Shown piece after piece: positions 40,055-45,095 of a stretch of 64,000 nt of DNA. The DNA lies in IMG/VR virus record IMGVR_UViG_3300034022_000267, positions 1-64,000 of that record; one strand, given 5' to 3'. Origin of the DNA: a virus. Its lineage: Duplodnaviria; Heunggongvirae; Uroviricota; Caudoviricetes. The notes beneath the pieces are model-generated. The model saw only the letters and a program-made list of their open reading frames with translations, was not told the DNA's origin and did not search any database. Every line of letters begins with the position of its first letter. Within the stretch, counting starts at the first letter, position 1. The position numbers and the translations under genes are program-made.

Positions 40055-40360
40055 ATGAAACCAAAAAAAGAACAAATTTTATGTGCTGCAATATGGTTAC
40101 AAGAAGCTGAAAGAGCAGTTCATAGACCTATTAATACACCAGGAGGTGTTGTTATTTGTGGATTTAGACATGGTAACTGTATATCATCTATAGTATCACT
40201 TACAGGTAAGAGATTACACGAACATGGAGAACATGTGCAAGGATTTTTAACTAACTTCAATAGATTTGTTGATAGAGAAGAAGGTGCTGAAATTTGGATT
40301 AGTAATGAAGGTAAATTAAGTTATTCTGAAAAAGAATTATATTCAGAAGATTTATATTAA
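40055..40360 (+). CDS. Hypothetical protein
   Basis: 101 aa. Confidence 0.35.
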   Translation: MKPKKEQILCAAIWLQEAERAVHRPINTPGGVVICGFRHGNCISSIVSLTGKRLHEHGEHVQGFLTNFNRFVDREEGAEIWISNEGKLSYSEKELYSEDLY

Positions 40361-40709: not shown

Positions 40710-43001
40710 ATGATATTAGAAAAACAGAAAGAAGCAAATGTCCTAGAAGAAGGACAAGCACAAGAATCAATTGGAATGTCCCTAGACTTAGATTCTGCAC
40801 AAATATTGATGCAGATGTTAAGTAAGAATTTATATTCTGATGATATAGGCTCTGCTATCAGAGAATGTGCAAGTAATGCATTAGATAGCCATAGAAGAGC
40901 TGGTGTGGACACACCAATTGTAGTTTCATTTAAAGCATCTACAACTAACAATTATGAGTTTTGTGTAGAAGATTTTGGTATAGGCTTAGATGCTGATGAT
41001 GTGAGAAACATTATTAGTAAATATGGTAAATCTACCAAGAGAAATTCTACAACAGAATTAGGTATGATGGGTCTTGGTTTTAAAGCTCCTCTTGCATATT
41101 CTAGTAGTTTCTACTTTGTATGTAGAAAAGATGGAATGGAACGTAAGTATATGATGTATGAAGGAGAAGATACTAATACTATTGATCTTTTATATGAAAC
41201 AAAAACAGAAGAACCTAATGGTGTAAAGATCATTATTCCTGTTAAGTTTAATGATAGATGGAGTTTTATGAGGAAAATCAAAGAACAACTTTGTTATTTT
41301 GAGAGTGTGTATTTTGATGTACCAGAAGATTCAAGCATTACTAATGATTTCTTAATATCTAGACATACACATTTTCAATTCTCTGAAATGTCTACAGACA
41401 CAAGATTACATATATGTTTAGACAATGTGTATTATCCTTTAGACTTTGAGAAGATAGGAATTGATAGAATTGATTTTCCTATAGCTCTTAGATTTTCATT
41501 GAGTGATGGATTATTTCCTACACCAAATAGAGAATCTTTGCGTTATACACAAGAAGCTAAGAAGATAATTATGGACAAGCTTGCTCAAGTGGCAGATTAT
41601 TATGTTGAGACATATAATAAATCTTTAAACGAAGGAAGTGATATTAAATCTATGATTAATTATCTTGAGAAGAATGGACATTATATTGAAATGTCTAGTA
41701 GAAAGTATAAAATTGATAATTTTCTTAGATATGCCAGTGTTAAACCACTTATACCAGAATTAGAAGGAGTGAAGTTACTCAACTTTCCTTCTTTGTATAA
41801 AATGTACAAACAAAACATTCTAGTTGATGCTTTTCCTTCTAAATTTTCTTTAAGATATAAAAGACTGTCAAGTGCAGATAATTATGTATATGGATATAAC
41901 TTAGAGAGTGTGTGTAATGGACAAGCTAAAGTTTGGGTATATGATGATAGAATTCCTCAGATCAAGAAAGATTACCTAAGAGCTACATGTGTAGAAAATG
42001 AACACAATTTCATTGTTAAAAGAGCTGCTCCTATGAAACTAGGAGTTCCTGCTAAGTTTGATCTTAAAACTTACTATCACTTATTAGCACTTAAGAGTTA
42101 TCCAAAAGATCAATGGAGAGATGTCATTAAAGAGTATCAGCACATTATGTCTATGATTGAAGAAACTTTCATTGATCTTGATGCTCTTAATGTTCCTCAA
42201 GACTTTATTGATAGCAAGAAGAAAGCAAAGATTAGTAAAGCTGGTATAGCTAGTACTAAAAGATTAAAGCTACAAGGAGAAATTGTATGTAAAAAAGGTG
42301 TAGATCTACTTAGATATAATGGTGGTAAAAACTGTAAGTTTGATTCTCAAATCTACAAGTTAGAAAATCTTGAAAGTGATAAGAACTTAAAGATTTACAC
42401 TCATCATGATGACTGTCTAAAACTTGATCCTTTATATGGTATGATGTCAAAACAAAAAATGGAAGTGATTACATTCTCTAGTAGAGAACTAAAGATTGTA
42501 GAACAATTAAACATACACAATTTAATATCTTACGAAAAGTTTATGGAAGGTAAAACAGCACCATTTAAAAGAATCATTACATCTGTATTAATAAATGAGA
42601 TGATGGGTCTTTATAGAAGCACATTTGATAGGATTGATGCTGTAAGATATGTATCTACTGATTTAGCTAATAAACTAGATAGATTATCTCAATATAGAAG
42701 AGATAACTATGTATCAACAGATCATGATTTAAGAAAAGCTATGTTAGAAGTGGCATTAGAACATAACTTGTTTGATCCACAAATCTATACAGAGTATATA
42801 GAGATGTTAGACATCTTTGATAAGCTTACATTCTTAAATCCTGTATGTGCAAGATTGGGATACACTCGTGAAGATGATCCAATGATACCAGTGATAATTG
42901 ATCTTTTCAAGTATTACAAACATAGAGTGGATCTAAAGCATTATAATATCAAAATCAATGATGAAGTGCTTACAGAAGAAACAATAGATCAATTAGCATA
43001 A
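40710..43001 (+). CDS. Hsp90/HtpG-family GHKL ATPase homolog
   Basis: 763 aa. The N-terminus ILMQMLSKNLYSDDIGSAIRECASNALDS matches the Hsp90 helix-1/N-box [32 protein letters not shown]. G1 box VEDFGIGLD, G2 box GMMGLGFKAPLAYS. YMMYEGED...GVKIIIPVK parallels Hsp90 YVWES...GTKVILHLK. Confidence 0.55.
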   Translation: MILEKQKEANVLEEGQAQESIGMSLDLDSAQILMQMLSKNLYSDDIGSAIRECASNALDSHRRAGVDTPIVVSFKASTTNNYEFCVEDFGIGLDADDVRNIISKYGKSTKRNSTTELGMMGLGFKAPLAYSSSFYFVCRKDGMERKYMMYEGEDTNTIDLLYETKTEEPNGVKIIIPVKFNDRWSFMRKIKEQLCYFESVYFDVPEDSSITNDFLISRHTHFQFSEMSTDTRLHICLDNVYYPLDFEKIGIDRIDFPIALRFSLSDGLFPTPNRESLRYTQEAKKIIMDKLAQVADYYVETYNKSLNEGSDIKSMINYLEKNGHYIEMSSRKYKIDNFLRYASVKPLIPELEGVKLLNFPSLYKMYKQNILVDAFPSKFSLRYKRLSSADNYVYGYNLESVCNGQAKVWVYDDRIPQIKKDYLRATCVENEHNFIVKRAAPMKLGVPAKFDLKTYYHLLALKSYPKDQWRDVIKEYQHIMSMIEETFIDLDALNVPQDFIDSKKKAKISKAGIASTKRLKLQGEIVCKKGVDLLRYNGGKNCKFDSQIYKLENLESDKNLKIYTHHDDCLKLDPLYGMMSKQKMEVITFSSRELKIVEQLNIHNLISYEKFMEGKTAPFKRIITSVLINEMMGLYRSTFDRIDAVRYVSTDLANKLDRLSQYRRDNYVSTDHDLRKAMLEVALEHNLFDPQIYTEYIEMLDIFDKLTFLNPVCARLGYTREDDPMIPVIIDLFKYYKHRVDLKHYNIKINDEVLTEETIDQLA

Positions 43002-43066
43002 TTAACAGAGGGACATCAATGTCCCTCTTATTTAACAAGTAACAATTAATTAATAAATAAATCAAA

Positions 43067-44623
43067 ATGGAACACAAATTTTTATCATTAGATTGGTTCA
43101 AAGAAACCGCAGAAAATGCAATTGCTAATGTTGTAGCTAACAAGTTAGAAAGCTTAATGGGAGAAGAACAACAAGGTTCTGATCCTGCTATTGCTAAAAA
43201 AGTTGAAGGAAAACCATATTTTAGTATGAAGATGGTAAATGACACACTTACAGTGGTATTGAACGATGGTGCTATTATTAGTAAACCTAATGCATGTGAA
43301 GATGATTTCTATGCTATATCAAAAGCTACATCTGTAGAAGAAATATTAGTTATTATATCTTCTGCTGAAGTGATGGCTAATGTAGAGAAAGCAAAAGCTG
43401 AAGCAGCTAGAATCAAAGCATTACAACAAGGTATTGAAAGATTATCTATAGTTGATGATTTTACTATAAAAGGTAACTCAGTTTATCTAAAAGGCACATC
43501 TAGAAGTATGCCTCAATTATTAGTTGAGAAGTTTATAGAAATAGTATATAGAGTACACAATACTGACTTAGAATGTGGATTAGAACAATTGCAAGACATG
43601 TTGAACGAAGATGATGATTACATGGCCCATAAGAACTTCTTTATGTGGTGTTGTCTTAATCCAAGAGCTGAGGTTGCTAATGAACTATATAGATTCTTAA
43701 CAGACAATAGTTTCAAAATTACTAAACAAGGATTCTTTGTAGCTCTTAGAAATGTTGTTACTGTTCATGGATCTCCAGAACTAGTTCACTTCGTAAGTAA
43801 TGCTTACAACAAAGTGAAAGCTGTGTGGAAGAAAAATCCAGCTGAGTATACAGTTTTCTTAGAAGATGGTGAATACAAACTTATACATGATGATAAGTTA
43901 TTTGAAACTATAATTGTAGATGATACAACATGTACATGTTGTGATGGAAATGGTGGATGGTATACTGAGTGGAATGATGAAATGGAAGATGAAGAATGGG
44001 AAGACTGTGAACTATGTGATGGAACAGGAGAAGTGGAAGAATATGAATATGAACAAACAGTTCCTGTAGACCATGGTGAAAGAATAGGTGGTTTGACAGA
44101 ATTGTATTTAGATCTTCCTAATAGAGAAGAGAATAGATTCACTGATAACTGGACTAAAACATTTGACATTCGTGTTGGACAAGTGGTCTCTATGCCTAAA
44201 GAAGAATGTAACTGGAGTACACAAGATTGTGCTACAGCAGGTCTTCACTTTGCTGGTTATACAGCTCCTTATGTTCTTTGTGGTGATACCACTGTTATGA
44301 CTCTTCATAATCCTATGAAGGTTGTGGGTATTGGTGCAGTGAAAGGTAGATGTTGGGAATATCTCCCATTCATGCTAACCACTGTTGCTGAAGCAGATCA
44401 GATTATGAATGATAGAAGCTTTGATTTCTTACAATTAGATGAGCAATATGCTATTCGTGAATTAGAAAGCTTAGCTGAAAAAGCTAAAGAAGGATTTGCA
44501 GTTGAATCTAAGAAATATGAATTCAATATGCCAGCTATTTCTGCATCAGAAATCAACATGATTGTTGCCAATCTTAGTGAGATGAAAACTAAGATAAAAG
44601 ACAGAGTGGTTACAATTAAGTAA
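43067..44623 (+). CDS. Protein with two DnaJ-type CxxCxGxG zinc-finger repeats
   Basis: 518 aa. CTCCDGNGG and CELCDGTGE flank an acidic segment. No J-domain HPD motif seen. Confidence 0.4.
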   Translation: MEHKFLSLDWFKETAENAIANVVANKLESLMGEEQQGSDPAIAKKVEGKPYFSMKMVNDTLTVVLNDGAIISKPNACEDDFYAISKATSVEEILVIISSAEVMANVEKAKAEAARIKALQQGIERLSIVDDFTIKGNSVYLKGTSRSMPQLLVEKFIEIVYRVHNTDLECGLEQLQDMLNEDDDYMAHKNFFMWCCLNPRAEVANELYRFLTDNSFKITKQGFFVALRNVVTVHGSPELVHFVSNAYNKVKAVWKKNPAEYTVFLEDGEYKLIHDDKLFETIIVDDTTCTCCDGNGGWYTEWNDEMEDEEWEDCELCDGTGEVEEYEYEQTVPVDHGERIGGLTELYLDLPNREENRFTDNWTKTFDIRVGQVVSMPKEECNWSTQDCATAGLHFAGYTAPYVLCGDTTVMTLHNPMKVVGIGAVKGRCWEYLPFMLTTVAEADQIMNDRSFDFLQLDEQYAIRELESLAEKAKEGFAVESKKYEFNMPAISASEINMIVANLSEMKTKIKDRVVTIK

Positions 44624-44636
44624 TTTAATTATAGTT

Positions 44637-44667
44637 TAGTCCCTTATTTTGATTAAATTTGGGACTA
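44637..44667 (+). terminator. Hairpin (terminator/attenuator)
   Basis: tagtccc-17 nt loop-gggacta directly after the 43067..44623 stop. Confidence 0.4.
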
Positions 44668-44684
44668 AATTTAATTATAATAAT

Positions 44685-45095
44685 ATGGCAAAGAGAGTAT
44701 TGGTCCCAAAGACAAGATGTGCAGGTAGCATGAGCGAAGCTGCATTCTGGTCATTTATCAGAAGTGCTTTGAGACAAAAAAGTAGATGGTGGAAGCCCAT
44801 AGCAGTGTGTAAGTTAAATGCACGTAGAGATTACAAAGGACCTAGTAAAAGACAAAAATACGAATACCAATGTAAGAAGTGTAAAACTTGGACCACTGAA
44901 AAGAATATTAATGTGGATCATATCATCCCTGCAGGAAGCTTGAACACAGCACAAGATTTACCACTATTTGTGGAGAGATTGTTTTGTGAACAAGATAATT
45001 TGCAAGTGTTATGTACTGCATGCCATGATGTAAAAACACTTAAAGAGAAGCAATCTAAAAAGAAAACAGATGGAAAAACAAATAATACTCAATAG
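44685..45095 (+). CDS. HNH endonuclease
   Basis: Track ORF 44649..45095. The listed start lies inside the hairpin, so the likely start is ATG 44685 (MAKRVL). HNH motif VDHIIPAGS...NLQVLCTACHDVKT with CxxC pairs. Confidence 0.6.
   Translation: MAKRVLVPKTRCAGSMSEAAFWSFIRSALRQKSRWWKPIAVCKLNARRDYKGPSKRQKYEYQCKKCKTWTTEKNINVDHIIPAGSLNTAQDLPLFVERLFCEQDNLQVLCTACHDVKTLKEKQSKKKTDGKTNNTQ

Follow-up and report, generated by a model that had tools for sequence, protein, structure and literature searches.

A divergent rIIA-rIIB gene pair, with a predicted zinc hairpin in rIIB, in a large aquatic phage with crAss-like packaging genes

Two adjacent genes in positions 1 to 64,000 of the viral record IMGVR_UViG_3300034022_000267 (Caudoviricetes; this whole 64,000-nucleotide stretch is called the window below) were found to encode divergent relatives of the rIIA and rIIB proteins of phage T4, the products of Benzer's rII locus. 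A sequence-only reading of the window had taken them for an Hsp90/HtpG-family ATPase and a DnaJ-type client-binding partner, and the two open reading frames (ORFs), ORF1 of 763 and ORF2 of 518 amino acids, lie exactly where that reading had put them. The locus is very probably a divergent rIIA-rIIB operon, most likely an accessory counter-defence pair, in which rIIB carries an added, predicted zinc hairpin in this clade. At the level of sequence comparison, the family membership of both proteins, the intact ATP-binding motifs and the strict pairing of the two genes were established here.

ORF1 and ORF2 as rIIA and rIIB proteins

ORF1 is an rIIA protein. Residues 1-699 matched the PHROGs family phrog_612 'RIIA lysis inhibitor' (E = 5.7e-59, profile positions 1-645 of 725), with five more RIIA families also matching, and BLASTP against T4 rIIA (E = 4e-18) gave an alignment that was colinear from Met1 of both proteins to residue 343. 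By tblastn, ORF1 matched 2649 GenBank phage records, and the named features among the 30 matches listed were mostly rIIA. Identity to T4 is approximately 21% for rIIA and 27% for rIIB, and the C-terminal half of T4 rIIA could not be aligned by BLAST with that of ORF1.

The motifs on which the comparison with Hsp90 had been built are present. The N-box (E52-x3-N56-A-x-D59) is contained in the string NLYSDDIGSAIRECASNALDS and the G2 motif (G118-xx-G121-x-G123) in ELGMMGLGFKAP; the G1 string is likewise there, the segment described as YxWES-like, YMMYEGED, pairs with VFWESAGEG of HtpG in a profile alignment, and the Pfam model HATPase_c_3 scored above its cutoff (30.4 bits against 25; E = 4.6e-7). 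ORF1 and Hsp90/HtpG thus share a Bergerat-fold N-terminal ATP-binding domain in which the N, G1 and G2 boxes correspond, but the middle domain, the Arg context of the catalytic loop and the C-terminal dimerisation domain of Hsp90 are all missing from ORF1, whose scores fall far below the Hsp90 family cutoffs and which matches PHROG 612 and T4 rIIA instead. Outside the ATPase domain ORF1 is rIIA-specific, unlike other GHL ATPases, and the partner domains of Topo VI-B, GyrB/ParE, MutL and MORC (Toprim, endonuclease, CW, S5-fold transducer) were not demonstrable in it. Membership of the Hsp90, DnaJ-domain and DNA-topoisomerase/MutL-type families was rejected on missing partner domains or sub-threshold scores.

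A cross-phylum rIIA alignment (A4) was made of ORF1, T4, the actinophages Dorin and Comrade and the alphaproteobacterial jumbo phages Papperlapapp and RBC63. Invariant in it were Y42, R51, E52, N56, D59, H61, D88, G90, G92, S108, K110, G118, G121, G123, K125, Y130, Y242-P243, P272, R274-E275 and K620 of ORF1; T4 rIIA agrees with ORF1 at the residues of the N, G1 and G2 boxes and shares the YP and P-x-R-E motifs. As the ATP-binding boxes are invariant across phyla, the ATP-binding machinery of ORF1 looks intact, and its GHL-type domain is apparently catalytically competent and would hydrolyse ATP. The second conserved region, which holds YP and P-x-R-E, may be the counterpart of the GHL 'transducer'. 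The predicted structure of ORF1 was of only moderate quality because a homologue search with the mixed rIIA alignment for more diverse rIIA recovered only the same close clade, leaving a shallow alignment of 65-89% identity.

The rIIA genes of several related phages are split exactly between G121 and L122, within the G2 box, by an element of approximately 1 kb (locus L020, 2015-3007; also L024/L025, L037, L038 and L040/L041; in the window this falls at codon 121/122, approximately 41072). This element encodes a 253-amino-acid ORF of double-LAGLIDADG type, and the group I intron model Rfam RF00028 scored 29.6 bits on it (E = 2.5e-5), a match that spans the whole model but stays below the gathering score. 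In the crAss-like phage cr116_1, rIIA is likewise split by an insertion carrying an 'intron-encoded endonuclease', whereas the rIIA of the window is intact, with no insertion at the G121/L122 site.

ORF2 is an rIIB protein, and not the DnaJ-type client-binding partner proposed for it. Two PHROGs families annotated 'RIIB' matched it (phrog_609, 1.1e-13; phrog_36818, 7e-5), and BLASTP aligned it with T4 rIIB in two colinear blocks, residues 153-230 with T4 132-217 (9e-6) and residues 358-422 with T4 221-287 (3e-4), which include the common N-P, Y/L-R and G-L-H motifs. The same two blocks were recovered against the rIIB of cr116_1 (2e-11 and 5e-13), where the second corresponds to residues 160-310. 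Among annotated rIIB proteins this one (MT774389; 'protector from prophage-induced early lysis') is the nearest, with 28% identity in two blocks that span most of its 320 amino acids. Across the rIIB family G222, R228, H394 (in G-L-H), G406 and P416 are invariant, with F191, P199, K426 and R428 nearly so.

When 1.84 billion representatives were searched exhaustively, ORF2 had 896 relatives, 419 of them at E values of 1e-10 or below. A family hidden Markov model (HMM) built from 118 relatives, without any T4-like sequence, scored 88 bits on T4 rIIB, 218 on that of cr116_1, 97 on rIIb of Caulobacter phage RBC63, 86 on rIIB of Streptomyces phage Comrade and 70 on that of Rhodococcus phage Dorin, as well as 84 bits on the unannotated gene that follows a 'histidine kinase' in a Brevundimonas phage; it did not match rIIA or HtpG. 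T4 rIIB was reached convincingly only with such a profile; tblastn with ORF2 against phages at 1e-5 returned cr116_1 as the sole match. A sequence search of the PDB with ORF2 gave nothing meaningful.

At 518 amino acids the rIIB of the window is longer than that of T4 (312), from which it differs in an extra central segment (residues 231-280), a zinc-knuckle insertion (residues 281-337) and the missing N-terminal helix-turn-helix (HTH); neither the central segment nor the zinc insert is present in the rIIB of cr116_1. No HTH as in T4 rIIB was found in ORF2 with Pfam, and a scan of 49 family members gave one that was HTH-positive, which was not ORF2. The cr116_1 rIIB fits the family profile from its residue 2, with no room for an extra N-terminal domain. 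The N-terminal HTH looks lineage-specific and not family-defining. When T4 rIIB was scanned alone (L002, 1966-2904), sigma-70 and DeoR-type models were matched at residues 7-65 (the stretch of the window compared with it is 43067-43210), and HTH_7 (5.6e-5) was matched in a single member of rIIB alignment A1, presumably T4 rIIB. The AlphaFold2 (AF2) model of ORF2 (predicted local distance difference test, pLDDT, 86.7; predicted template modelling score, pTM, 0.76) has a long amphipathic helix at the N-terminus (residues 8-35) followed by a low-confidence linker.

A zinc-knuckle insertion in rIIB

The two CxxCxGxG repeats and the missing J-domain noted in the sequence-only reading were both borne out: ORF2 holds exactly two such motifs, and no J-domain (DnaJ) family was matched by Pfam at E values up to 1. 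Of 120 close homologues, 119 retain both motifs, with an Asp/Glu-rich linker between them that varies in sequence and length (motif starts 19-32 residues apart), which argues that the motifs are not there by chance; they are also both present in 75 of 80 related IMG/VR viral loci. Judging from this conservation, the four cysteines are under purifying selection in the clade. All full-length representatives of at least approximately 51% identity in which the region is present have both motifs, and only 8 of the 150 50%-identity representatives listed have a CxxCxGxG motif; among the sequences compared, the insertion is restricted to the closest clade.

In the AF2 model the motifs sit at the tip of a long beta-hairpin (strands 279-288 and 322-333; pLDDT 84-98). 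The CxxCxGxG consensus is shared with the DnaJ zinc finger and with Anti-TRAP, and the knuckles of ORF2 are predicted to cap the hairpin; where DnaJ forms two zinc centres from four repeats, the two repeats of ORF2 would give one centre. The element is an insertion inside rIIB, without the J-domain, G/F region or C-terminal domains of DnaJ. Pfam DnaJ_CXXCXGXG scored 14.2 bits on ORF2 (E = 0.055) against a cutoff of 32.7, the best family member reached 3.9e-4 together with a match to Anti-TRAP, and the top PDB match of the ORF2 model in Foldseek was DnaJA2 at E = 0.29. A DnaJ central domain was rejected on the two repeats in place of four and the sub-threshold Pfam score. The insertion is best described as one pair of DnaJ-type knuckles (Cys4) set into rIIB, with one putative zinc centre.

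Gene pairing, spacer and phage background

The order rIIA then rIIB on one strand is common to T4 (PHROG 612 and 609), cr116_1, Dorin, Comrade, Papperlapapp and RBC63, and was found in 65 of 65 related IMG/VR viral contigs having at least 2.4 kb of upstream DNA. A metagenomic relative with a 28%-identical rIIB that has no zinc insert is also paired, its upstream 737-amino-acid gene scoring 178 bits on the rIIA profile. Pairing of rIIA with rIIB is strict whether the zinc hairpin is present or not; the co-occurrence of the two neighbours thus stood, with the partner conserved as rIIB and the zinc hairpin optional. The phrog_609 'RIIB' profile (1055 columns) matched ORF1 residues 33-300 (40806-41609) with its N-terminal part and ORF2 residues 172-231 (43580-43759) with its C-terminal part, which suggests that natural rIIA-rIIB fusion proteins exist. 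A few genes downstream of the pair, the contigs with the 28%-identical pair carry a 399-amino-acid PARP-family (PF00644) protein (L011, 10038-11237; L012, 7714-8913) and an ATP-dependent DNA ligase.

The spacer between ORF1 and ORF2 is 65 nucleotides long. It contains a G+C-rich stem-loop, AGAGGGACA-tcaa-TGTCCCTCT, followed by TATTT. Fifteen related loci were examined, and in 11 of them (L016, L021, L026, L029, L033, L035, L042, L043, L047, L049 and L087) a hairpin lies at the equivalent position, with stems that differ by compensatory changes, which points to a conserved element between the genes: a terminator, an attenuator or one that affects mRNA stability.

As had been read from the sequence, the pair lies in a phage replication region: the flanking block holds genes for a family-A-type DNA polymerase, helicases, Sak4, primase, uracil-DNA glycosylase (UDG), an HNH endonuclease, a PD-(D/E)XK-type exonuclease, UvsX/RecA and a deoxynucleoside monophosphate kinase, with portal, large terminase and tail-fibre genes at the ends of the window. 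Coding strand and GC skew flip near 10 kb and 57 kb of the window, the minus-strand packaging and tail genes at both ends enclosing a plus-strand replication block of approximately 46 kb. The neighbourhood in cr116_1 is the same (primase, rIIA, rIIB, UDG, PD-(D/E)XK exonuclease, HNH), with a terminase of related type. Coordinates are collected in Table 1.

Table 1. Features of the rII locus and its immediate neighbours (positions in the window; residues of ORF1 or ORF2)
Feature	Position	Strand	Details
Small T4_Y16D-family protein	40055-40360		Upstream of rII pair; Pfam PF26092, scanned on a contig with identical ORF1
ORF1, rIIA homologue, 763 aa	40710..43001	+	GHKL ATPase N-terminal, conserved rIIA core, lineage-variable C-terminal half
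Bergerat-fold (GHKL) ATPase domain, aa ~25-195	40782..41294	+	
N-box E52/N56/D59	40863-40886	+	Within RECASNALDS, ORF1
G1 box D88-G92	40971-40985	+	D88-F-G-I-G92, in VEDFGIGLD
G2 box G118-G123	41061-41078	+	G118-M-M-G-L-G123
Second conserved rIIA region, aa ~196-300	41295..41609	+	Invariant Y242-P243; P272-x-R274-E275 at 41523-41534; inside the stretch aligned to T4 rIIA
9-bp stem-loop	43007..43028	+	rIIA-rIIB spacer, 6 nt past rIIA stop codon
ORF2, rIIB homologue, long variant, 518 aa	43067..44623	+	
rIIB conserved block 1, aa 153-230	43523..43756	+	F191, N198-P199, G222, R228; (near-)invariant columns in alignments A1, A2
Clade-specific insertion, aa ~281-337 (~55 residues)	43907..44077	+	Zinc-knuckle-capped beta-hairpin (predicted); boundaries from A1
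CxxCxGxG motif 1, aa 289	43931-43954	+	CTCCDGNG
CxxCxGxG motif 2, aa 314	44006-44029	+	CELCDGTG
rIIB conserved block 2, aa 354-506	44126..44584	+	T359, G371, G392-L393-H394, G406, N415-P416, K426, R428; A1, A2
HNH endonuclease	44649-45095		Directly downstream of rII pair; phrog_1985, 4.4e-24

The phage itself is large and aquatic; its packaging genes are crAss-like, and it is not a T4-type myovirus. Its terminase and portal are of the crAss-like/Cellulophaga phi4:1 type. The nearest cultured relative is Leptolyngbya phage Lbo-JY46, with 40% identity in the large terminase; the corresponding values are approximately 31% for Cellulophaga phages phi4:1 and phi17:2 and approximately 27% for crAss-like phages. 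The window has a G+C content of approximately 31%, and a near-identity DNA search of GenBank phages with 24 kb of it gave zero matches, so that no close cultured relative is found there. An identical ORF1 is carried by a 117 kb metagenomic contig, and a 14 kb contig of sample 3300037516 has the same ORF1 and the same flanking gene order; relatives lie on contigs of 110-120 kb from many aquatic metagenomes, TARA among them.

Counter-defence and rival explanations

In coliphages, rIIA and rIIB counteract RexAB, and the rII modules of T4, MM02, EdH4, SUSP1 and N4, at less than 40% identity, all do so (PMC11879866; bioRxiv 10.1101/2025.11.20.689424); resistance to RexAB exclusion via rIIA/rIIB is known from coliphage genetics alone (PMC11879866; 10.1101/2025.11.20.689424). 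RIIB by itself is enough to trigger a CARD-gasdermin system (PMC10312443). One description of rIIA gives it a GHKL domain at the N-terminus and a variable domain at the C-terminus, and places it in a counter-defence system that is poorly understood (PMC7824862). By homology with the rII modules of T4, N4 and other coliphages, the rIIA and rIIB of the window would most likely act jointly as an accessory counter-defence device, perhaps as a complex, and in their own host the pair may block early cell killing by a host- or prophage-encoded abortive infection system of RexAB type, which works by membrane depolarisation. The putatively zinc-stabilised beta-hairpin, with its acidic tip, would most plausibly add or retarget a surface for protein-protein contact.

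A GHL ATPase domain could also belong to a DNA-directed clamp, of Topo VI-B, MutL or MORC-like type, working with a DNA-binding partner in replication, recombination or transcription control in place of counter-defence. We consider this unlikely, as neither protein gave a match to a Toprim, endonuclease, CW or other DNA-handling domain and the T4-type HTH is missing from the rIIB of the window; moreover, knocking down rII in coliphages or disrupting it with transposons is neutral when RexAB is absent (PMC11879866; 10.1101/2025.11.20.689424), which argues that the rII module is not a core replication function. The shared Bergerat fold and CxxCxGxG consensus might suggest a phage Hsp90/HtpG-type chaperone (ORF1) folding or remodelling proteins with a DnaJ-like zinc-finger client-binding partner (ORF2), a pairing that is already largely refuted at the level of families and that we find hardly credible.

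A further reading, very improbable, would give the conserved C-terminal core of rIIB a divergent fold of ADP-ribosyltransferase-like type that uses NAD+, and would make rIIA its regulator, driven by ATP. The resemblance of the core to such enzymes is faint and unconfirmed, and no solved structure is a confident relative of it. Nothing relevant came from searches of the literature for rIIB together with ADP-ribosyltransferase, zinc or crAss. Another proposal for the rII module, which we regard as distinctly unlikely, is that of an ATP-driven protein remodeller, in which rIIA would be a GHL-type dimerising clamp and rIIB an adaptor or effector whose conserved core acts on a host abortive-infection component, with the zinc hairpin binding the target in this clade. 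The divergent rIIA-rIIB counter-defence pair remains the preferred explanation.

The main yield is a correction of annotation, from an apparent phage Hsp90/DnaJ system, which had been called not a standard phage module, to a divergent copy of the widespread and classic rIIA/rIIB module, and the finding is in that respect largely ordinary. It extends the range of rII, a widespread and still poorly understood module for phage escape from host "suicide" defences, to very abundant uncultured aquatic phages of approximately 110-120 kb whose packaging genes are crAss-like and whose rII has 21-28% identity to T4. What remains new is the zinc hairpin, the weak and unconfirmed ADP-ribosyltransferase-like signal in the rIIB core and the invariant residues now defined for both proteins, which are targets for mutagenesis: the ATPase boxes, YP and PxRE of rIIA, and R228, G-L-H394, N-P416, K426 and R428 of rIIB. 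With its strictly conserved, putative Cys4 zinc hairpin and confident AF2 model, the rIIB of this clade may be a tractable homologue for the study of rII function, and, if the protein-remodelling proposal were true, this compact, soluble-looking variant could at last show by what biochemical mechanism rII works, a problem now 70 years old.

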